Shown here piece after piece: positions 19,251-29,723 of a stretch of 29,723 nucleotides of DNA. Under the pieces are notes generated by a model. The model was not told where the DNA came from, ran no database searches, and was given only the letters and a program-made list of their open reading frames with translations. Position numbers and translations under genes: made by a program. The stretch is from a virus. Lineage: Duplodnaviria > Caudoviricetes. The DNA lies in IMG/VR virus record IMGVR_UViG_3300012953_000143, positions 1 to 29,723 of that record, one strand, 5' to 3'. Every line of letters starts with the position of its first letter. Position 1 is the stretch's first letter.

Positions 19251-19932
19251 TAAACTAAAACAATTAAAAGAAAATCTAAAAGGTGGTAAATCAGAAAAAA
19301 ATAAAAGTCCTAATGTAAGAGAGATTAATGATGAAAATTTTGTGGTTAGAAATACCAATGAATTTATATATTTAGATGGTAGTAAAGTAGGAGTGGGAAC
19401 ACGATATCACATACATATTAATAACATTAATAAAGAAGATGTAATAATGACGGGTGAATCTCATAATAAAAAATCAGAGAGAATATTACAACTTAATGGT
19501 AAAAAATATATGTTATCTCAATATATTTTATCAAAAGGAAAGGCACCAAAATATAAGGAATATTATACTCCCTACTCATACTCAGTATCTAAAAAACATA
19601 GAAAACTCGGATTTTCATATAGATATTTTGTAAAAGAATTATTTGGTGCTAGTTTAGATTTTGAGATTAATGATGTTACATACGGAGATGATAATCCTTT
19701 GTACGAAAGAATAAAAATAAAGTGGGACTTAGATACAAATATAAATGAGATGAGTAGAAAAAATATTGAATCTATGGAAACTCTTACCAGACGAGGATAT
19801 CAATCATCAGTAAAAACTTTAAATCCAACACAAGGATATTTGTTTGAATCACAAGTTGATAAGGAATTACAAACTCAAAAAAAGGTAGGTGATTTAAATA
19901 AAAAAATTGAACCCACAAATCAAGCTTATTAA
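19243..19932 (+). CDS. Hypothetical protein
   Basis: 229 aa, overlaps the upstream stop; GGAG upstream; no recognised motif. Confidence 0.75.
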   Translation: MLDKLKQLKENLKGGKSEKNKSPNVREINDENFVVRNTNEFIYLDGSKVGVGTRYHIHINNINKEDVIMTGESHNKKSERILQLNGKKYMLSQYILSKGKAPKYKEYYTPYSYSVSKKHRKLGFSYRYFVKELFGASLDFEINDVTYGDDNPLYERIKIKWDLDTNINEMSRKNIESMETLTRRGYQSSVKTLNPTQGYLFESQVDKELQTQKKVGDLNKKIEPTNQAY

Positions 19933-19983
19933 AAGTGTATTTGAGATTTTATCTCACTAATTATTTAAAATTAAGGTTATATT

Positions 19984-20685
19984 ATGAAAGTCGATGTATT
20001 AGATAAGGGTTATATTGAACTTGTCGATACACTTGGAGATGACTTAACGCCCGTTAATGCAGCTCGTGTATCTTTTGGTGGTCGTAGTGATGAATTCACC
20101 AGCAAGGACAAAAGACTATCAAGGTTTTTAATCAAACACAAACATTTTAGTCCGTTTCGACATCAACATATTATGGTGATTATTAAGGCACCTGAATTTG
20201 TAATGCGACAATGGTATAAGCATGTTGTGGGTATTGAAACCACATCATCAAGTGTAACAAAAGATCATGCTTGGAACGAGATAAGCGGTCGTTACATTCC
20301 TGTTCAAGAGTATTATCATCCTAATGTTTGGAGAAAACAGAGTGAGGATAATAAACAGGCAAGTGAAGGTGTGTTAGATGACTTACAACAAAAGAGAATG
20401 AATGCGTGTTACAATGATTATATGCAACAAGTCGAGATGACTTACGATAGAATGATTAATGCTGGAATGGCTAAAGAACAGGCCCGTATCGTACTCCCAC
20501 TTTCACAATACACATTAGTTTGGTGGACAGCGTCTTTCCAAAGTGTGATGAACTTCATCGAGTTAAGGGATGAACCAACTGCACAATGGGAGATACAAGA
20601 ATATGCAAAAGCACTCAAATTCATGATGTTAAAGTTTTTTCCTGAAACCACTAAATTATGGTCAAAAGAATATTGGGAAAAATAG
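19984..20685 (+). CDS. thyX: Flavin-dependent thymidylate synthase
   Basis: VLDKGYIELVD..GDD..VNAARVSF, H.SPF.H, AP.FV.RQW, WNE.SGRY, G.AKEQAR.VLP, NF..LR....AQWEI..YA. Confidence 0.95.
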   Translation: MKVDVLDKGYIELVDTLGDDLTPVNAARVSFGGRSDEFTSKDKRLSRFLIKHKHFSPFRHQHIMVIIKAPEFVMRQWYKHVVGIETTSSSVTKDHAWNEISGRYIPVQEYYHPNVWRKQSEDNKQASEGVLDDLQQKRMNACYNDYMQQVEMTYDRMINAGMAKEQARIVLPLSQYTLVWWTASFQSVMNFIELRDEPTAQWEIQEYAKALKFMMLKFFPETTKLWSKEYWEK

Positions 20686-20691
20686 GTTATA

Positions 20692-21960
20692 GTGATAATA
20701 GAAAGGGACAATCAGTTTGATGGTTTTATAGAAGAAAATCAAAATTCTGATTGTATTTTGATTCCGATTTTATCGGATGTAAAAAACCATGCTAAACAAA
20801 ACACATTAAGTGCCATTTATATAAAAATTATAGATGGTGTAGAAAGAATCGTGTGCTTAAATCATGGTGAAACCTTAAAGATGAATGTGGACATATCATC
20901 ACTTAATAAATTGGGTAAAAAGTATTGTTATGATAAAAAAGAGTTGAACCACATCATTAAGTTAGATGATGTTATTGATGTAAACTTACAATACTATATG
21001 AAAAACAATGAACCATTGATTTTAGAAGAATTATCCACACCAACTCACGATTACTTTTACAGAACGATGTGGAGAATAAAAAATATCAATAGAATAATAC
21101 CAATATGGAAACATATCGAATTATGTCGTGTGAAAACACAAGTAATGGAGAAGTATGTTGATTTACCAATTCATCAAGATTACAACGATGAGATTATAGA
21201 CAACTTGACTCATATAGAAGAAAATGGTTTGAGAAAGGACGATAAGTTAGTGTATTCTCAGTATAATTTGTACACAAGTACTGGTAGACCATCAAACAGA
21301 TTCGGTGGTATCAATTTTGCAGCACTTAATAAGACCGATGGTAGTAGGAAACCATTCAAAAGTAGATTTGAGGAAGGAATGTTAGTCGAGTATGACTTTG
21401 ATGCATATCACTTACGATTAATTGGAAATTTATTAAATTATAGTTTTCCTAAAGGTTCTGTACACGAGCATATGGGAGAATTTTACGGATGTGATTACCA
21501 AGAGTCCAAAAATCGGTCTTTTCAGTACCTTTATGGTCATATTCCACAAGAAGTGGTGGAAATCAATCCATTTTTTGAAAAAGTACAAGATTATATCAAT
21601 CAAATTTGGAAGGAATATAAACGAGGACATTTTATAGAGTCTGATATTTATATAAAGAAGATATTTAAACAAAATCTTTCGGCCATGAATAGAAATAAAC
21701 TATTTAACTATATGATTCAGTTGTTGGAAACCGAGAATAATATGAAGATACTGAATAACTTGATTCCGTTTATTAAGAATTATGAGAGTAAACTTGTATT
21801 GTATAGTTACGATAGTTTTTTATTTGATTTTAAGATATCCGATGGGTTGGATTTTTTGAAACAAGTAAAGGGTATATTAGAAGTAGATGGTTTGTTTCCC
21901 ACGAAAGTAGCAAAGGGATTGAACTATCATGAAATGAAAGATATAACGGAGAAATTATGA
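20692..21960 (+). CDS. Minimal family A DNA polymerase-like protein
   Basis: GTG start, 422 aa. TSTGRPSN (cf. TGRLSS), motif A DFDAYHLRL, motif B K...F..LYG, NYMIQ, motif C LYSYDSFLFD. Confidence 0.88.
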   Translation: MIIERDNQFDGFIEENQNSDCILIPILSDVKNHAKQNTLSAIYIKIIDGVERIVCLNHGETLKMNVDISSLNKLGKKYCYDKKELNHIIKLDDVIDVNLQYYMKNNEPLILEELSTPTHDYFYRTMWRIKNINRIIPIWKHIELCRVKTQVMEKYVDLPIHQDYNDEIIDNLTHIEENGLRKDDKLVYSQYNLYTSTGRPSNRFGGINFAALNKTDGSRKPFKSRFEEGMLVEYDFDAYHLRLIGNLLNYSFPKGSVHEHMGEFYGCDYQESKNRSFQYLYGHIPQEVVEINPFFEKVQDYINQIWKEYKRGHFIESDIYIKKIFKQNLSAMNRNKLFNYMIQLLETENNMKILNNLIPFIKNYESKLVLYSYDSFLFDFKISDGLDFLKQVKGILEVDGLFPTKVAKGLNYHEMKDITEKL

Positions 21961-24497
21961 GTTATTGGGACAAAATATTAGAGAGTTTTAGTTACAAATC
22001 CAAAGGTGGAGCTCCTGACTTTTCCAATCCTAACGATAGGTTATTATTAAGAATGGAACTTTTGAAAAGGGGTTGGAATGAAGGTGCGGTAAATGAGTTA
22101 ATGTATAGGTTAACCGAGAATACAAGTAAAGAACAAAATGATTATCTTAAATCATTTGGTGAGTTTCCTTGGGGTAAAGATGGAAACAAGATATTCTTAA
22201 CTACTGCACTAAACTACGCCAGTTCAAAAGACTTTCAATTACAACAATATAAACAAGTTGCTAACGAAAAGGCAAAACAATTTTTACAAAAACGAGCTGA
22301 TGTAGGTTCAGAATTGGCCAAGTCTATACTTCAGGTAGATGATCCGAAAAAGAAGGTCGTAAAAAAGAAAGTAAAAAAAGAAAAAGAAATAAAACCAAAA
22401 CCATTGAAGAAAAATGAGTTGAAAAATACTCAAGAAAAAACTTCTGATGATAGAGATAAGGGAACTGCGGGAGCAGGTGGTCAGGCAGCAAGTCAAGGTG
22501 AATCAAGGTATTGTTCAGCAGTTGATGAGATGAAATTAGAAGACGAGTTAAATGGTGTAAGTCAAGAAGAGGTAAATGCTAAAAAATCAAAAGGATTAAG
22601 TAAACCTGAAAAGGATACATTAAAATCTCTCGGTTTCGAAGAACCATATGATGATAACGCACACAAATATTTGATAGCTCGTGAAAAATGGGCGGAACGA
22701 GAATACGAAAGAATTAAAAATAAAAAACCTTATAAGATTCCAAATCCTTCCCCACCACCAAAGACAATTGGTAATAATGTATTGATGAATAGTGATGGAT
22801 TCAATGGTGATAAAAAAGGATACTTGGAATGGATGAGGGCAGCATTTGATGGAGCTATTGCAACCCAAGAACTACTAAAAGAAAGTAGTATGGATACCAC
22901 ACAAGGAACTCAGACTGTTCAATCCACCACCGAAGTAGATGATAAAGTTTTGGCTGATTTAATGCACAGGCGTGATAGCTATCCTGAAGGGTCTGTAGAA
23001 AGAAAACATTATGATAGACAGATAGCAAGGTTTTCAAAGAATAGAAAATATCATGATACATATGTGGTTGGTAAGGATGTAGATGGTCTTACAGTTGTGG
23101 TTTCGGTATCTAATAAAAAGGATAGTCAATTAAAAGACCCACAAAATAATACCACTCCTGCACAGAGATTTGAGGTCATCAAGGAAAAATTTGGAAGTAA
23201 AGTTGCCAAGGGAATTACCGATACCATCGATAGAGGAATAAAGATAGTAACGGAAGTACAAAAAGTTACTATTAAAAAGGCATCAGAACACGAAGTCGAT
23301 GATGATTTTGTCCATGTTGCAGACATTGTAGCACCTAAATATCTATATGGTAGTTCTTCTGAAATGGGTGTTGTAAAGAGAGGATTAAAACGAAGTAGAG
23401 GTAAGGAAAAGATTTTAGTTAAGGATAAGGATGGTAATTTAGTAGAGAAGAATAAGCCACATCCAGCTGCTCGATTTGGATGTTGGTTAGAGGACAAAGG
23501 TATAACACCTCAACAATGGGAATCCATGTCTACAAAAGACAAACTCAAATGGACTCAAAAATATATGGCAGACACGGATTATCATGAAAAGACAGGACCA
23601 CCACCATATGCTATAGCCAAGGTTTGGATAAAGGTTGGTGAAGCATCACAAGGTGGTAGAGGTATTGTTGGTATAAGGAGTGATTCTATGATGAAAACTT
23701 TGGAAAAGCATAATCCTAAGTTAAAGTCACAGGCCGATAAAAATTTAAAGGCCTTAGAAAAGAAGTTAAAACCAAAAAAACCAACACCTGCTCAGAAAGA
23801 GGCGACAATAAAAGAAGTTTATGACCAACATAAAGCCGCAGGTGGAAAAAAAGACCCACTCGACCAAGATGAACAATCATCATCCGTCAGTAGTGCTGGA
23901 GTAATAAAAACAACTGAGGCAGGTTCTATTAATAAGGCACATAGAGGTGTTAGAAATAAGATAGCATCAGAAGACCAAAAACTTGATTATCCCAAAAGAG
24001 ATAAGGAAGGAAAAATAATTGAAAACGGCCCAAATGCAAAGGCATACATAAATACGGTATTAGACGCACTACACTACAACTCTTATATAGATGCAGATGA
24101 TGACGAAGGAATGATTATACAGATGGGTTCAAGGTCGGCGAAACCAAGTCATATTAGAAAATGTTTGGCAGAAATGGTAGGTGAACCTGAGTTAGCTAAT
24201 AATCCTGAAGAACTTAAAAAGAGATTACAAAATACTTGTGAGTTAGGTGTTCGAGAAGAGGGAGCGGGTATTAATGGTGCAATAGTGATTGTCAATAGGA
24301 ATAAAGTATTAAAAGACAAGGATGGTAATCTTACATACGAAAAAAAGGTCATAGCAAATGACTCTTGGAGAACAGCAGGAACATCACAAAAGGTCGCCAG
24401 TGGACATGGTGATGATATGAGAGAATGTTTGAAAGAAAAGATTGACGCTGATGCAAAAGAACGAAAATCTAAGACAAAAAAATCTAAGGCGAACTAA
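21957..24497 (+). CDS. Large Lys-rich hypothetical protein
   Basis: 846-aa ORF, ATGA-coupled to the polymerase gene; GGAG RBS. Confidence 0.85.
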   Translation: MSYWDKILESFSYKSKGGAPDFSNPNDRLLLRMELLKRGWNEGAVNELMYRLTENTSKEQNDYLKSFGEFPWGKDGNKIFLTTALNYASSKDFQLQQYKQVANEKAKQFLQKRADVGSELAKSILQVDDPKKKVVKKKVKKEKEIKPKPLKKNELKNTQEKTSDDRDKGTAGAGGQAASQGESRYCSAVDEMKLEDELNGVSQEEVNAKKSKGLSKPEKDTLKSLGFEEPYDDNAHKYLIAREKWAEREYERIKNKKPYKIPNPSPPPKTIGNNVLMNSDGFNGDKKGYLEWMRAAFDGAIATQELLKESSMDTTQGTQTVQSTTEVDDKVLADLMHRRDSYPEGSVERKHYDRQIARFSKNRKYHDTYVVGKDVDGLTVVVSVSNKKDSQLKDPQNNTTPAQRFEVIKEKFGSKVAKGITDTIDRGIKIVTEVQKVTIKKASEHEVDDDFVHVADIVAPKYLYGSSSEMGVVKRGLKRSRGKEKILVKDKDGNLVEKNKPHPAARFGCWLEDKGITPQQWESMSTKDKLKWTQKYMADTDYHEKTGPPPYAIAKVWIKVGEASQGGRGIVGIRSDSMMKTLEKHNPKLKSQADKNLKALEKKLKPKKPTPAQKEATIKEVYDQHKAAGGKKDPLDQDEQSSSVSSAGVIKTTEAGSINKAHRGVRNKIASEDQKLDYPKRDKEGKIIENGPNAKAYINTVLDALHYNSYIDADDDEGMIIQMGSRSAKPSHIRKCLAEMVGEPELANNPEELKKRLQNTCELGVREEGAGINGAIVIVNRNKVLKDKDGNLTYEKKVIANDSWRTAGTSQKVASGHGDDMRECLKEKIDADAKERKSKTKKSKAN

Positions 24498-24916
24498 TGA
24501 GAACCCAACTTCTTTGTACATTTGCAACCCAAGACAGGTTAAAACAAACCGTTGATTTAATTATCGCCTGTCACGATGTGCTATATAGTAAAATATATGT
24601 ATTTGTAAATGAAAAGGATGTATCACAATTGATATGTACTTACAACATACCAAGTAATCAAGACAATTTTGTAGAAGGTATGGACACCATAGCACTACAT
24701 AGAAAAAAACAATCCAACACATTGTACACAATAAACGCACTCAATGAGGTTATTCGTTCAAAGAACAATGGTATATTAGATAAGAAGTTTCCAATTGAGT
24801 GGAGCGAGTTTCAAAACACATTATTGTTGGTAAATGATCAGGGATTGAATAAAATCCCAACACGGATTTACAAAATAGTAAATACCGAAACTTGGAGTAA
24901 TGAACAACACCAATAA
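24497..24916 (+). CDS. Hypothetical protein
   Basis: 139 aa, TAATG-coupled to the previous gene; globular composition. Confidence 0.8.
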   Translation: MRTQLLCTFATQDRLKQTVDLIIACHDVLYSKIYVFVNEKDVSQLICTYNIPSNQDNFVEGMDTIALHRKKQSNTLYTINALNEVIRSKNNGILDKKFPIEWSEFQNTLLLVNDQGLNKIPTRIYKIVNTETWSNEQHQ

Positions 24917-25756
24917 ATGAATTATAGGTTTTACTATCCTGACTGGAATAGTCGTAAGGATGTTTGTGAAAAACATCCATTAATAAAAGAAATCACAAAA
25001 CAACCGATATCCTTTTGGTATGGAGTTGGGCCCAAACGAACCATTAGAAAGACCAAAAAGTCAATCCAACGATTACTAAAACGGGCACATCCATACTTAC
25101 CAACATTAGTTATATATTCAATTCCAAATAGAGATTTAGGACACCATTCCAAAGGTGGTGCTAATAGTGATGATGAGTATCTAAGATTCATTCAAGAGTT
25201 CTGTAATGCAATTGGAGACAAATCACCTATCGTTATATACGAACCTGATTGTATACCACACATGGAACAGATGGGATTTATTGATGGATTGGATAGGATG
25301 AAACTCATTAAGGCTTCTGTGGAATTGTTGAGTAGGACAAATGCAAAAGTTTACTTGGATATTGGTCATCCAAAATGGCTTTCAGTCCCAAAGGCAGTTT
25401 CATATCTTACAATGTGTGATGTACACAAGGTTAGAGGTTTTGCACTCAACACGAGTAACTATTATGCTACAAGTACCTGCTACAAATACGGAAAGTCAAT
25501 CAGTCAAAGACTGAAGTCCAAACATTTCATCATAGACACTTCGAGAAATGGAAATGGTGCAAACAAAGACCATTTTAATCCCTATGGGAGAGCAATAGGT
25601 CAAACTCCAACCACCGATACTTGTGATGAAATAGTAGATGCATATTTATGGGTAAAAGTTCCTGGTGAAAGTGATGGTAGGGTTAATGGTGGCCCAAAGG
25701 CAGGTAGGTTCTCACATAATTTAGCGTTGGATTTAATTAATAATAAAAAAAGCTAA
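24917..25756 (+). CDS. Glycoside hydrolase family 6 (endoglucanase/cellulase-like)
   Basis: LVIYSIPNRD, VIYEPD, VYLDIGH..W, GFALNTSNY, FIIDTSRNGNG, NP.GRAIG..PT, DAYLWVK.PGESDG: the full ordered set of GH6 motifs. Confidence 0.93.
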   Translation: MNYRFYYPDWNSRKDVCEKHPLIKEITKQPISFWYGVGPKRTIRKTKKSIQRLLKRAHPYLPTLVIYSIPNRDLGHHSKGGANSDDEYLRFIQEFCNAIGDKSPIVIYEPDCIPHMEQMGFIDGLDRMKLIKASVELLSRTNAKVYLDIGHPKWLSVPKAVSYLTMCDVHKVRGFALNTSNYYATSTCYKYGKSISQRLKSKHFIIDTSRNGNGANKDHFNPYGRAIGQTPTTDTCDEIVDAYLWVKVPGESDGRVNGGPKAGRFSHNLALDLINNKKS

Positions 25757-25762
25757 AAAAAA

Positions 25763-25796
25763 CTATCGTTTGAGAATTTTGGTATATATATATAAT
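25763..25796 (+). promoter_or_regulatory. Putative promoter of the structured RNA
   Basis: CTATCGTTTGAGA identical to the sheath promoter, with ATATATAT at the same offset as that promoter's ATATTTAT, ending in TATAAT. Confidence 0.65.
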
Positions 25797-26475
25797 TGTC
25801 TTTCGAGACAGAAAGTTTTTTGAAATTTGAAAATTAAAAGTAGAGAGAGTAATTTACTCTCTATGGGGATTGACCGAAAAATGGGTGACTTTGAAGCCCA
25901 TAAGGTAATCCACCGAGATGTTGTGGTGACTAACCCAATGCCGAATGTGGTGTTAACAAGGCGGTTTCGTAGACATACGACTCGGAATGTACTTTTAGAA
26001 ATACAAAAGAAGCGATTCTTTGACCTCTTTGTGGGTAAGGGTAAAACCGAAGTCCCACTTTATGACCGAATAATTTATTCTCAGAGAGATAAGGTGATAA
26101 TACAGAAGTTGTTTTCGCTCCAACGATAACTAACTATTATTGAGGAGAACCATCGTAACTGATGGGTGTTAAGCAAGAGGTTCGAACAAATCTGAGCTAA
26201 AAGTTGTAGGTAATTCGCAAAATCCTACATCCCAATATTTTCAAATTTATAGTAGATGATATTGTAAATCCTACGCAGGCGATAATGATACTGAAAGGTA
26301 TGTATTGTAAGAGTTTTTATCATATACTATATTGACTTTGGAGAGTATCTTTACAGAATTAAAAGATGAGAAGGGTGTGTTTGTATTCCCTAACTTTCCA
26401 ATTTATTTAAGGTGGTGAGGTCTTTTTACATATACCCGATAATTAAATTTATCTAAAACTCATCACCTTTTTTTT
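25797..26475 (+). ncRNA. Large multi-domain structured non-coding RNA (~680 nt), family unassigned
   Basis: Gene-free gap in otherwise tightly packed DNA; 12-bp perfect long-range helix 25823-25834/26237-26248; more than 15 hand-paired helices; TTCG, GCGA and GAAA tetraloops; bounded by a promoter-like element and a stem plus T8. Confidence 0.78.
26409..26475 (+). terminator. Terminator-like 3' domain of the RNA
   Basis: AAGGTGGTGAG (26409-19) pairs with CTCATCACCTT (26459-69; one G-U), running into T8; the 39-nt enclosed segment is atypically long for a terminator. Confidence 0.55.
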
Positions 26476-26509
26476 AGCAAGAAATATTTGATTTTTTTAT
26501 CAAAGGGTT

Positions 26510-26517
26510 ATATTTAT
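26510..26517 (+). promoter_or_regulatory. ATATTTAT box upstream of ssb
   Basis: Recurring octamer preceded by TTTGA and a T-tract. Confidence 0.6.
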
Positions 26518-26588
26518 ATTTGTCAAAGGTTATTACCAATGACAATTAATAATTAACGAATTAAAAATAAACATAAGGAGAATATCGA

Positions 26589-27353
26589 ATGGATATTAAC
26601 GCAGTACGCAAGAGATTAGCTCAGTTACAAACGACTAATACTCGTACCACAAATCTGTGGAAACCTCAACCGGGTAAAACCCAAATCAGAATAGTACCTT
26701 ACAAACTACAAAAAGAATCACCTTTTATTGAGTTGTTTTTTCATTACGACTTAGGTGGTAAAACCTATCTTTCACCAATTTCATTTGGTCGACCAGATCC
26801 TATCGAAGAATTTGCCGACAAACTAAAATCAAGTGGTAATCGTGAAGATTGGAGACTTGGTAAAAAACTTGAAGCAAAACTTAGAACTTTTGCTCCTGTT
26901 GTAGTTCGTGGTGAAGAAAACGAAGGTGTTAAATTTTGGGGATTCGGTAAAACCGTATATCAAGAACTACTATCAATTATAGCAGATCCTGATTATGGTG
27001 ATATTAGTGATCCTGTAAATGGTCGTGATGTCGGTGTTGAGTTTTTAACCGCAGAAGAGACCGGTGCTAATTTCCCTAAGACTAACATTCGTGTTAAACC
27101 AAATCAAACACCAATCACAGAAGATAAGGCAAAGTTAGAATCAGTTCTAAAAGACCAAAAAGATATTTGTGAAGTATATCAAGAATTGTCCTACGATGAA
27201 CTAACAGACGCTCTTAATGATTGGTTGAATCCATCAGAAGAAGATGGTGAATCAACATCAAAAGAAGAGAATGTACCAGCATCTACCTTAAAGACAGCAG
27301 TTAATTCAACATCTGATGCAGGTAGTGCGTTTGACGATTTGTTTAATTCATAA
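26589..27353 (+). CDS. Single-stranded DNA-binding protein (T4 gp32-like)
   Basis: WKP..G...IRIVP, FHY, DPI.E, GVK.W.FGKTVY..L, D..D...GRD, acidic tail ending AFDDLFNS; RBS AAGGAG. Confidence 0.88.
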   Translation: MDINAVRKRLAQLQTTNTRTTNLWKPQPGKTQIRIVPYKLQKESPFIELFFHYDLGGKTYLSPISFGRPDPIEEFADKLKSSGNREDWRLGKKLEAKLRTFAPVVVRGEENEGVKFWGFGKTVYQELLSIIADPDYGDISDPVNGRDVGVEFLTAEETGANFPKTNIRVKPNQTPITEDKAKLESVLKDQKDICEVYQELSYDELTDALNDWLNPSEEDGESTSKEENVPASTLKTAVNSTSDAGSAFDDLFNS

Positions 27354-27363
27354 GGAGAACTAA

Positions 27364-28470
27364 ATGTCTGTAACAGTCAAAGATGAACTGGCACAAGTTC
27401 TTGCTGAAAACTTAAATAAAAAGTTCAAGAATAATAGGGTTGCTTATTTTCTCGATGGGAGTGGTTCAACTCCTACCGATATTAAGGAATTTATCTCAAC
27501 AGGCTCATCAATTTTAGACTTAGCAATTTCCAATAGACCTGATGGTGGAATCGCCGTAGGTCGTATTACCGAATTAAACGGATTGGAAAGTAGTGGTAAG
27601 TCTCTAATTGGAACTCACATATTAGCAGAAACACAGAAGAAAGGTGGAGTAGCAGTTTATATTGATACTGAAACTTCTGTTAGTCGTGAGTGGTTAGAAA
27701 CAATTGGTATAGATGTCCAAAATCTACTTTATCTTCATGTTGAAACCGTAGAAGATATTTTTGAATGTATTGAAAATATCGTTACGAAGATTCGTGAAAG
27801 TGATAGGGATAGATTAGTAACTATTTTAGTTGATAGTTTAGCAGCCGCTTCCACTAAGGTGGAGATGGAAGCAGACTTTGAAAAAGATGGTTGGGCAACA
27901 GCTAAAGCAATTATCATATCAAAGGCCATGAGAAAGATTACCCAAATGGTAGGTAGAGAAAGAGTAGCCTTGGTATTTACTAATCAACTTCGACAAAAAC
28001 TCGGAGTTATGTTCGGTGATCCTTGGACTACAAGTGGTGGTAAAGCATTACCATTTCACGCTTCTACTCGTATTCGTTTAAAGAATATGGGACAGATTAA
28101 AGATACTAAGAAGAATGTTTTAGGTATGAAAGCAAGAGCTCAGATTATCAAAAACAGATTAGGTCCTCCATTACGACATGCCGACTTTAACCTTTATTTC
28201 GATAGTGGTATTGATGATAAGGGAAGTTGGTTACAAGTAATGAAAGACCATAAACTTGTTAAAGTTGCAGGTGCTTGGTATACATTAGAGTATAATGGTG
28301 AAGATATTAAATTTCAATCCAAAGACTTCAGTAAGAAATTAGAAGAGGTCGATGGTTTGGAAGAACATCTTTATGGTTTAATTTGTCAAGCTTCCGTATT
28401 ACAATATCAATCAAAAGATTTAGGTATTGATGATGTGGAATATACAGATGAAGTGGTGGGTGATGGTTAA
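27364..28470 (+). CDS. recA: RecA/UvsX recombinase
   Basis: ISTGS..LDLAI, GG...GRITE..G.ESSGKS (Walker A), YIDTE, ILVDSLAA (Walker B), FTNQLR.K.GVMFG.P.TT.GG.AL.FHAS.R. Confidence 0.97.
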   Translation: MSVTVKDELAQVLAENLNKKFKNNRVAYFLDGSGSTPTDIKEFISTGSSILDLAISNRPDGGIAVGRITELNGLESSGKSLIGTHILAETQKKGGVAVYIDTETSVSREWLETIGIDVQNLLYLHVETVEDIFECIENIVTKIRESDRDRLVTILVDSLAAASTKVEMEADFEKDGWATAKAIIISKAMRKITQMVGRERVALVFTNQLRQKLGVMFGDPWTTSGGKALPFHASTRIRLKNMGQIKDTKKNVLGMKARAQIIKNRLGPPLRHADFNLYFDSGIDDKGSWLQVMKDHKLVKVAGAWYTLEYNGEDIKFQSKDFSKKLEEVDGLEEHLYGLICQASVLQYQSKDLGIDDVEYTDEVVGDG

Positions 28471-29533
28471 TGGAAAATACCTATCTATACTCGAAGAAAT
28501 AAAAAAACATGGCGGCGATTCTTACTCCAATAATCCCAATGAAAAAGTACTGATAATAGATGGCCTAAACACCTTTATTAGAGTATTTAGTGTTATACCA
28601 ACTACTAATGATGATGGAATTCACATTGGTGGAATAGTTGGTTTTCTGAAATCAGTTGGTTACGCAATAAAAATGTTAGGACCTACTCGTACCATTATCG
28701 TCTTTGATGGTAAGGGTGGTTCTAACCGCCGCCGTAAACTTTATCCTGAGTATAAGGCAAAACGATCACCTAAGAAAATAAGACTCAACCGAGTTAATGA
28801 ATTCGAAAATATAGATGATGAACGACATTCTATGTTGATGCAGTTATCTCGATGTGTTGATTACTTAGAAAGACTACCTGTTAGTATATTATCAATTGAT
28901 AATGTGGAAGCAGATGATGTTATGGCTTACGCAGCTAAACAACTACTAACCGATAGTAAAATTACTCTAATGAGTACCGACAAAGATTTCTTACAATTAG
29001 TTAATGATAGAATATCAGTATGGTCACCCACTAAGAAAAAACTTTACAATCCTGAAAAGGTGTTAGAAGAATATAAGGTTACATCTAGCAATTTGCTATT
29101 AAGTAGAGTTTTTGAGGGTGACCAATCTGATAATATCAAGGGAGTTAATGGAATTGGTGTGAAAACTCTCTTGAAACACTTTCCTGATTTAGGTAGGGAA
29201 GGTATGGTGTTCTCGTATGATGAAATAATTAATGAGGCACGAAAGTATCAAGGAACGAGATTTTACGATATCATACTTGATAACCAAGACACCATTGATA
29301 TTAATCATAGGTTGATGCAATTATATGATGTGGATATTAGTGGACAGGCAAAATTAAAGATAAATAATGTGGTAAATGGAGAAATACCTGAACTATCAAA
29401 GCCAATATTTCAGAAAATGTTTATAGAGGACAGAATGTTTGGTGCCCTACCAAACATGGATAGTTGGTTAATGCAAACTTGGACTAATCTGAATAGATTC
29501 GCGAAAATAAATAACAATGGGAAGAAAGCGTAA
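28463..29533 (+). CDS. 5'-3' exonuclease / flap endonuclease (T4 RNase H / PolI N-terminal domain-like)
   Basis: LIIDGLN..IR, VFDG, RRKLYPEYKA.R, EADDV, STDKDFLQLV, GD.SDNI.GV.GIG.KT (H3TH). Start probably the ATG at 28463 overlapping the recA stop, rather than 28427. Confidence 0.95.
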   Translation: MVNGKYLSILEEIKKHGGDSYSNNPNEKVLIIDGLNTFIRVFSVIPTTNDDGIHIGGIVGFLKSVGYAIKMLGPTRTIIVFDGKGGSNRRRKLYPEYKAKRSPKKIRLNRVNEFENIDDERHSMLMQLSRCVDYLERLPVSILSIDNVEADDVMAYAAKQLLTDSKITLMSTDKDFLQLVNDRISVWSPTKKKLYNPEKVLEEYKVTSSNLLLSRVFEGDQSDNIKGVNGIGVKTLLKHFPDLGREGMVFSYDEIINEARKYQGTRFYDIILDNQDTIDINHRLMQLYDVDISGQAKLKINNVVNGEIPELSKPIFQKMFIEDRMFGALPNMDSWLMQTWTNLNRFAKINNNGKKA

Positions 29534-29699
29534 ATATCAAACCGAAGAAGAGAAGAAGAAAGCTCAGCGAAAGTGGCAAATGGAACATTACCATCGCAAC
29601 AAAGAGCAAATTTTGCAAAAAGCCAAAGATACTTATAAGAAGAAAAAACGAGATAAGATGAGAAGAGAAAGGAGTAAAAGATTGTATGGTGACCAGTAA
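29517..29699 (+). CDS. Small highly basic hypothetical protein
   Basis: 60 aa, K/R-rich helix (MGRKRKYQTEEEKK..Y.RNKE.I..K); possible nucleic-acid binder. Confidence 0.65.
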   Translation: MGRKRKYQTEEEKKKAQRKWQMEHYHRNKEQILQKAKDTYKKKKRDKMRRERSKRLYGDQ

Positions 29700-29723
29700 A
29701 CTTATCAATGGAGATAGTGCTGA

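Follow-up and report, generated by a model that had tools for sequence, protein, structure and literature searches.

The RNA specified by the large intergenic gap of this viral record is a double-core variant of the known family manA, and not a new class of 680 nt. It is conserved as one unit on the + strand (25823..26248), closed by a terminal helix (25823-34/26237-48), and its outer unit is almost certainly a complete manA RNA, whose P8 arm carries an inserted inner unit directly behind the L8 hairpin. Taking the data as a whole, we lean towards a stand-alone nested double-manA RNA that would associate with itself by kissing loops. The window, by which we mean the whole 29,723-nt stretch of DNA that was analysed, is a linear virus record of 29.7 kb with an estimated completeness of 15%. 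It encodes tail sheath, tube and baseplate proteins, ThyX, a GH6 hydrolase, a gp32-like ssb, RecA and a 5'-3' exonuclease; from the tail genes and the other gene content we take it to be a piece of a large myovirus-like phage, and the source is marine. The RNA lies in a gap (25757-26588) between the GH6 gene, which ends at 25756, and the ssb gene (26589..27353, + strand; PF08804), which has its own promoter-like motif. This is the only large gap in the window without conserved ORFs, as the earlier note had claimed, and the window contains no tRNA genes.

Family assignment and architecture of the RNA

The Rfam model of manA (RF01745) matches 26030-26233 with 62.9 bits against a gathering cut-off of 55.2, and this is the sole Rfam match above gathering score in the whole window. 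The matched stretch is a hybrid, in which the inner core is joined to P9 of the outer unit. The earlier note had matched the RNA to no known family and had suggested a GOLLD- or ROOL-like class or a new one; neither view survives, as the 3' half exceeds the manA cut-off and already lies inside the manA alignment of 2010, and GOLLD and ROOL gave no Rfam match at E values up to 5 in 25600-26700. There was likewise no Rfam or ARAGORN match to tmRNA, RNase P, OLE, group I/II introns or self-cleaving ribozymes. The proposal of a structured RNA of about 680 nt stands insofar as this is a large, covarying phage non-coding RNA, but its conserved part is only ~430 nt: the conserved unit is 25814-26248, the fold ends at about 26248 and the last 227 nt (26249-26475) lie outside it. 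Folding is better than in shuffled controls, as had been anticipated: z was -4.5 for 25790-26490 (20 shuffles), and of its parts 25823-26248 scored -3.0 (60 shuffles) and 26249-26475 only -1.2; two coding stretches included as controls gave z 0.05 and -1.0.

Relatives were collected as 80 loci fetched with ssb and further loci found by motif patterns; distinct near-full-length copies in a profile search numbered 71 initially and 148 after all scans. Removal of three truncated or duplicate rows from the 71 left 68, which were thinned at 95% identity to the 42 homologues (mean identity 67%, minimum 48%) on which most counts rest. A diverged clade comprises 30 sequences, 19 after thinning, and L141/L536 is a further outlier besides it. 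Of the 72 matches of a first tandem pattern, 21 were not close relatives; three of these were diverged double forms, five were single cyanophage manA RNAs with a chance motif and 13 were chance. Among 50,697 annotated phage records there were no relatives, the one match (E 0.7) being chance. A pattern search in GTDB genomes returned 61 matches, 59 of them judged chance and two real: L378, a Pelagibacter MAG contig that belongs to the window's clade and is probably a binned phage contig, and L369, a Flavobacteriaceae MAG of the diverged clade.

Both copies of the manA core motif, UGAC(C/U)GAAUAA ... UAAGGU around P3, are present, at 25871 and 26063, 191 nt apart. The layout runs P1, P2, outer core, 5' strand of P8, L8 hairpin, inner unit, J8, 3' strand of P8, P9 and P2. 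The outer core (25866..25987, + strand) is made up of the P2 5' strand GGGAU, the UGACCGAA...UAAGGU motif, P3 and the junction P4-P7, with the loops L5 GUGGU (25923-27) and L7 GACA (25972-75). The inner unit (26023..26181, + strand) has a P1' hairpin, the core motif at 26063-95, the P3' loop CUCAGA and the junction P4'-P7', whose loops are GUUGU, UAACUA and GUAACU. The four-way junction P4-P7 is thus found in both cores, the outer P6 varying in length and being left out of the count, and P8, P9 and the closing strand each occur once per RNA. A covariance model of the inner core recovered all of 10 canonical cyanophage manA loci, with scores of 42-58 bits, and in 28 of 41 double loci it also picked out the outer core in its corresponding position (10.6-54.6 bits), its eight off-target matches scoring at most 11.5 bits; the window's own outer core is weak by this measure (16.9 bits, E 0.044, with 16.2 for the best chance match). 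No second core lay upstream of canonical cyanophage manA in any of the 95 copies with enough flank. The inner P1' hairpin (26031-26058) contains a GUA...GAA internal motif that we take to be like loop-E or sarcin-ricin; capped by a short stem-loop, it is clearest in subclades with GUACCCGAAAGGAAAUC.

The nested secondary structure, together with the L3'-J8 and L8-L9 contacts, is shown by covariation. In a tree-based blind count 34 of 89,358 column pairs had at least four compensatory events; 26 of these 34 were at least 90% paired, all inside the proposed helices and in both halves. Over the full alignment 94.9% of cells are paired, against 38-45% with partners slid, and two-sided changes occur in 71 of 99 pairs, while the inner unit has them in 26 of its 30 pairs. 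An alignment-free test set each strand against its own partner and against partners from other sequences in 2000 permutations, which ignore relatedness among homologues; not one of the 2000 reached the own partner for the terminal helix, P2, P8, Px, both P4 helices, L3' x J8 or L8 x L9. This test was used for P8 and L8-L9 because the MAFFT alignment misaligns them for one subclade (78% paired). Some of the helices have changed in more than one lineage, and by eye the diverged clade has the same pairings.

Individual helices bear this out. On the tree, single pairs of the outer unit's P1 hairpin (25840..25864, + strand) have as many as 9 compensatory events, and P9 with its loop L9, followed by the 3' strand of P2 (26205..26233, + strand), has 8-9. 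The closing helix P2 (25866-70/26229-33, + strand) brackets both cores and changes as GGGAU/AUCCC, GGAAU/AUUCC and GGGGU/ACCCC. The long-range helix P8 (25991-98/26197-204, + strand) encloses the L8 hairpin (26006..26021, + strand; loop GCGA at 26012-15), the inner unit and the J8 strand, and scored 17.3 with its own partner against 10.2 when permuted (0/2000). Px (26023-29/26175-81, + strand) closes the inner unit (0/2000). The latter two long-range helices were absent from the drawing of the earlier note, all of whose quoted helices are readable where it had placed them. Homologues support 25823-34/26237-48, CCGAG/CTCGG, TCGTA-GACA-TACGA, GTGGG/CCCAC, CCATC/GATGG and TGTAGG/CCTACA. They also support CTCAGA/TCTGAG as a pairing, but as a pseudoknot that crosses other helices and not as the nesting stem that had been drawn, whereas AAAGAA/TTCTTT is visible by eye in the alignment only. 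The first hairpin of the core exists, but its supported register is 25840-47/25857-64. Two pairings were lost: the GGATT/AATCC arm, whose own partner was no better than permuted ones (1965/2000) and which is unsupported because GGGAT pairs with ATCCC at 26229-33, and TGATAATA/TATTATTG, both strands of which have other partners in the homologues.

Loop-loop contacts

The J8 strand UCUGAG (26191..26196, + strand) pairs with the inner loop L3' (26080-85) as a pseudoknot or kissing contact, with 100% of cells paired and two-sided changes in four of the six pairs. L8 GCGA (26012-15) is complementary to L9 UCGC (26215-18; 0/2000), and the two change together in the series GCGA/UCGC, ACGA/UCGU, AUGA/UCAU, AGCC/GGCU and AACC/GGUU, as they do, by eye, in the diverged clade. 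Pairing of the outer L3 with J8 was rejected (1586/2000 permutations), and pairing of the outer L3 with L6 also failed the permutation test.

The triplets of L5 and L7 behave differently within and across cores. Counted by alignment column, they match within either core in 0 of 42 homologues; across cores, the inner L5' matches the outer L7 in 41 of 42 and the outer L5 matches the inner L7' in 39 of 42, the exceptions being L213, three of the 42 for the outer L5 contact, and L633. These contacts are 3 bp only, one being mostly a G-U pair, and since the loops are nearly invariant (371 and 1717 of 2000 permutations) the matches are to be read as compatibility and not as covariation. In the diverged clade UGU and GACA are both kept in 16 of 19 members, both lost in two and singly lost in one. 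The partner of the outer L5 is less sure, as the inner L7' is without AC in the diverged clade and the inner L6' also fits; L6' (UAACCA) is a competing partner in 31 of 42 homologues (4/2000 permutations). In single manA RNAs L5 ends in N-G-U, L7 contains A-C-N, and the third pair matches as well. Cyanophage single manA has UGGU with ACCA in 98 of 103 copies, Photobacterium single manA has L5 GUUGUG, L7 GACAU, L3 UUCAGCG and L8 AGCUGA, and another manA seed sequence has AUAGU with GUAACU. Because the triplets match only across cores, the RNA is likely to behave like two fused neighbours of a manA ring. Read from sequence, the contacts would be compatible with intramolecular and intermolecular pairing alike.

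Transcription unit, 3' modules and genomic setting

The RNA is probably transcribed as a stand-alone unit. Its own promoter and terminator, proposed in the earlier note, find counterparts among the homologues, the functions of both being putative: a promoter-like motif, TTTG-N(8-18)-TATATA (25769..25792, + strand), precedes the RNA in 40 of 42, and a terminator-like hairpin with a U-run follows within 330 nt downstream in 34 of 42, compared with 16 of 200 control stretches. A similar promoter-like motif precedes ssb at 26487, and a similar pattern has four matches on the + strand of the window, including those before the RNA and before ssb; a sigma-70 scan gave nothing at the proposed 5' end and missed the promoter-like motif. 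The TTTG...TA motif resembles Bacteroidota-type promoters. A 5' hairpin (25797..25810, + strand) is present where it had been proposed and in many homologues, but its sequence is variable and some homologues are without it. Next comes a boxA-like leader, AGUUUUUUGAAA (25814..25825, + strand), which resembles rRNA-leader antitermination sites. The sequence GTT(C/T)TTTGA occurs in 39 of 42 homologues and once on the + strand of the window, and the diverged clade, in a set picked by that same motif, has GUUCUUUAACA or GUUCUUUGAAA. The boxA consensus is given as AUGAUCUUUGAAA for B. subtilis and UGCUCUUUAACA for E. coli, each B. subtilis boxA following a small hairpin (PMC13753749). The likeness to an rRNA-operon leader lies in the small 5' hairpin and the boxA-like 12-mer after it; here, however, the leader precedes a phage non-coding RNA, and the window has U for the consensus C (PMC13753749).

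On sequence grounds, the 3' 227 nt are optional modules plus a putative terminator, passengers of the RNA. Module A, of 91 nt (26247..26337, + strand; z -0.5), is optional and found in this genome only, with no match among the fetched loci nor, by pattern, in viral contigs; it is skipped in near-identical RNA contigs (X1, X2 and X5) and absent from DNA relatives. We rejected splicing or excision as the origin of the 91-nt skip and consider a strain difference more likely, as the DNA relatives are without the same segment. Module B (26338..26401, + strand), a small three-way junction with loop-loop complementarity, is also optional; it has 55 matches among the fetched loci, many of them duplicates, and occurs in seven of the 39 homologues listed. 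Its loops show a compensatory change between ACAGAA/UUUGU and ACAGAU/AUUGU (window; L001, L004, L109, L127, L148). Neither module belongs to an Rfam family. Other structured inserts of 60-130 nt stand between RNA and terminator in L116, L123, L018, L021 and L193 and are subclade-specific, and some homologues have no such module at all. The terminator-like stem GGUGGUGAG/CUCAUCACC with its 39-nt insert and U8 (26411..26475, + strand) is read as such from the homologue counts and was missed by a short-loop terminator scan. We note that this insert of ~40 nt (26420-26458 in the window; L081, L032, L085, L040, L026) is conserved and of two types, the commoner being a UUUUUAG...CUUAAAAA stem with a loop containing CCAC.

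Among 22 listed runs, 19 RNA runs contain part of the stretch. Eight runs were compared, seven of them RNA from five studies, and their contigs span 25842-26248, with 0-3 differences in some of them; such assembled contigs, chosen with this stretch, are silent on strand, ends and level, and DNA may be among them. Three runs (X1, X2 and X5) continue from 26246 to 26338-26400, skipping module A, and as contigs read on toward the terminator the 680-nt span is a plausible precursor for this genome. In three studies the contigs begin at 25842-25849, which hints weakly at a 5' end close to P1 but was not confirmed by any DNA run. The RNA contigs do not cover the upstream GH6 gene, and X2 and X10 cover two of 30 bins of 19900-29723; since the runs were picked with this stretch, the gap in cover over GH6 is not taken as evidence.

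The genes that flank the RNA vary among homologues. The GH6 glycoside hydrolase gene directly before it (24917-25756; PF01341, E 6.5e-48), here carried by a phage, is absent upstream of the RNA in most of them. Elsewhere in the window, 3-2789 holds four tandem paralogous ORFs of 215-251 aa with a common C-terminal motif at their ends, and the two that were scanned both match Laminin_G_3. Single-core manA above the Rfam cut-off was seen directly after tmRNA (L437, 585-761), after an apparent T4-type ssb gene (L456, 687-860) and in a tRNA cluster (L469, 691-871), and in L536 tmRNA comes right after the double form. Canonical cyanophage manA (L250-L368) often has, by eye, a TATAAT-like box immediately before it and a run of U immediately after it, which suggests that these are stand-alone transcripts too.

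Proposed oligomer formation, alternatives and known systems

The family manA, a riboswitch candidate since Weinberg et al. (2010; PMC2864571), has lately been reported in vitro as RNA-only rings and a 60-mer shell (10.64898/2026.07.01.735769). The likeness in spirit to cage-forming RNAs suggested in the earlier note is therefore a fair one, the reported manA cages and rings being those of single-core forms. This cryo-EM preprint of 2026, which names the deposited manA models PDB 23NR and 24QD, describes 8-, 10- and 60-mers in which L5-L7', L8-L9' and, in Photobacterium manA, L3-L8' form the kissing-loop contacts; its constructs are all single-core and below 200 nt, and assembly was in vitro (10.64898/2026.07.01.735769). 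Counterparts of all three kissing pairs are present here, with loop numbering matched by logic only, and the inner L3', the inner L5' and the outer L7 resemble loops of Photobacterium manA_pho34_A767. One chain would thus be a fused neighbour pair, as its L3' and L5' contacts are the same, in the same direction, as those from subunit to subunit in the Photobacterium manA ring. By analogy with the single-core RNAs, the double manA RNA probably forms oligomers.

We propose that transcription would start at the upstream promoter, pass the hairpin-boxA leader and stop at the terminator, and that the product may be trimmed at its closing stem. The two cores would dock on each other, the inner core offering L3' and L5' to J8 and L7 of the outer unit, and the remaining loops, that is the outer L5, the inner L7' and L8-L9, would link chains, likely joining further copies into an RNA-only closed oligomer. 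If cores alternate strictly, each ring would hold an even number of them; such a two-core chain would be incompatible with a five-core ring, in contrast to the manA rings of the preprint. In the most speculative step, the oligomer would be a stable scaffold or sponge in infection and no switch for the ssb operon. A broader evolutionary account can be offered only tentatively: an internal duplication may have fused two manA-ring neighbours, with cores that became specialised to kiss only the other kind. The product would be an RNA-only ring or shell that is closed and has an even core number, unlike the pentamer-based 10-mers and 60-mer and like protein rings made pseudo-symmetric by gene fusion, and it would be made in rRNA fashion by means of the boxA leader and the processing stem.

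One rival explanation is a compact monomer, in which the kissing loops are satisfied within one chain that acts as a decoy or a protein-binding scaffold and forms no cage. We regard this as unlikely but as deserving some weight, since each contact has both partners in one chain, the fusion of cores could have closed the valences and the preprint deposits two manA constructs as monomer models (10.64898/2026.07.01.735769). However, in every single manA variant that the preprint describes these loops connect one copy with another, and making both cross-core contacts in one chain would need a two-membered ring, whereas the reported rings are five-membered. A cis-regulatory leader or riboswitch for the ssb-recA-exonuclease operon, which would agree with the cis-regulatory type given to manA by Rfam and with its history as a riboswitch candidate, is improbable. 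The RNA does lie upstream of ORFs on the same strand and is followed by a terminator in 34 of 42 homologues, and in 33 of 42 the next ORF resembles ssb. That share is inflated, as ssb had been used to fetch some of the homologues, and another gene is next in the other nine; moreover, the window's terminator sits 160 nt past the fold, ssb has a promoter-like motif of its own and eight of 19 members of the diverged clade are near tRNA genes, within short loci.

Two independent tandem manA RNAs might be read from the spacing of the core motifs and from L536, in which Rfam manA matches two adjacent stretches (27.0 and 29.0 bits), but this reading is largely refuted and has very little left in its favour: compensatory changes occur in P2, P8 and the terminal helix, which link the halves, and there is a single P8, P9 and closing strand per RNA. 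Scarcely tenable, and refuted as a class claim, is a new 680-nt RNA of the GOLLD or ROOL kind; large size, pseudoknots, a phage origin and the frequent position of the diverged clade beside tRNAs would suit it, but the manA score, conservation that stops at ~26248 and the optional 3' modules do not. That the region codes for the 100-aa ORF 25827-26129, the structure being incidental, can practically be dismissed, for although an open frame exists it is broken by stops and frameshifts in homologues, a frame of at least 90 aa is kept in one of 42 (the window itself), there is no Pfam match and the codon-level conservation named in the earlier note as a refutation of the RNA is not seen.

The stand-alone, self-associating double manA RNA therefore remains our preferred reading, and it bears on the family in several ways. 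The 2010 manA alignment contains at least five sequences of the 3'-half type, whose 5' closing strand is gapped (PMC2864571); as it has the 3' half only, the family model stands corrected by a double form that is natural and widespread. The double form argues for manA as a stand-alone phage RNA and against a UTR switch. The subunit-joining loops are conserved and seem to have changed partners between the fused cores, which offers a natural test of the cage contacts and a prediction of ring symmetry. Four of the five parts of the preprint's text mention no double form (10.64898/2026.07.01.735769), and in the open literature that was searched no double or nested manA is described, subscription journals and the preprint's supplement (two manA variant sets) being beyond reach.

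With manA this RNA shares the core motif, the closing helix, the four-way junction, the P8-P9 arm, L8-L9 and L3-L8 complementarity and the marine phage setting. It differs in its length (~430 against ~190 nt), in having two cores, the second nested in P8, in L5 and L7 triplets that match across cores and never within, and in an additional terminal stem and boxA-like leader. GOLLD and ROOL are, like it, phage-encoded, large and pseudoknotted, and they are often near tRNAs and form RNA-only nanocages (PMC12286853, PMC5737381). The double manA RNA is shorter than either (ROOL mean 581 nt, GOLLD often >800 nt; PMC12286853, PMC5737381) and, unlike both, is built of a recognisable duplicated manA module.
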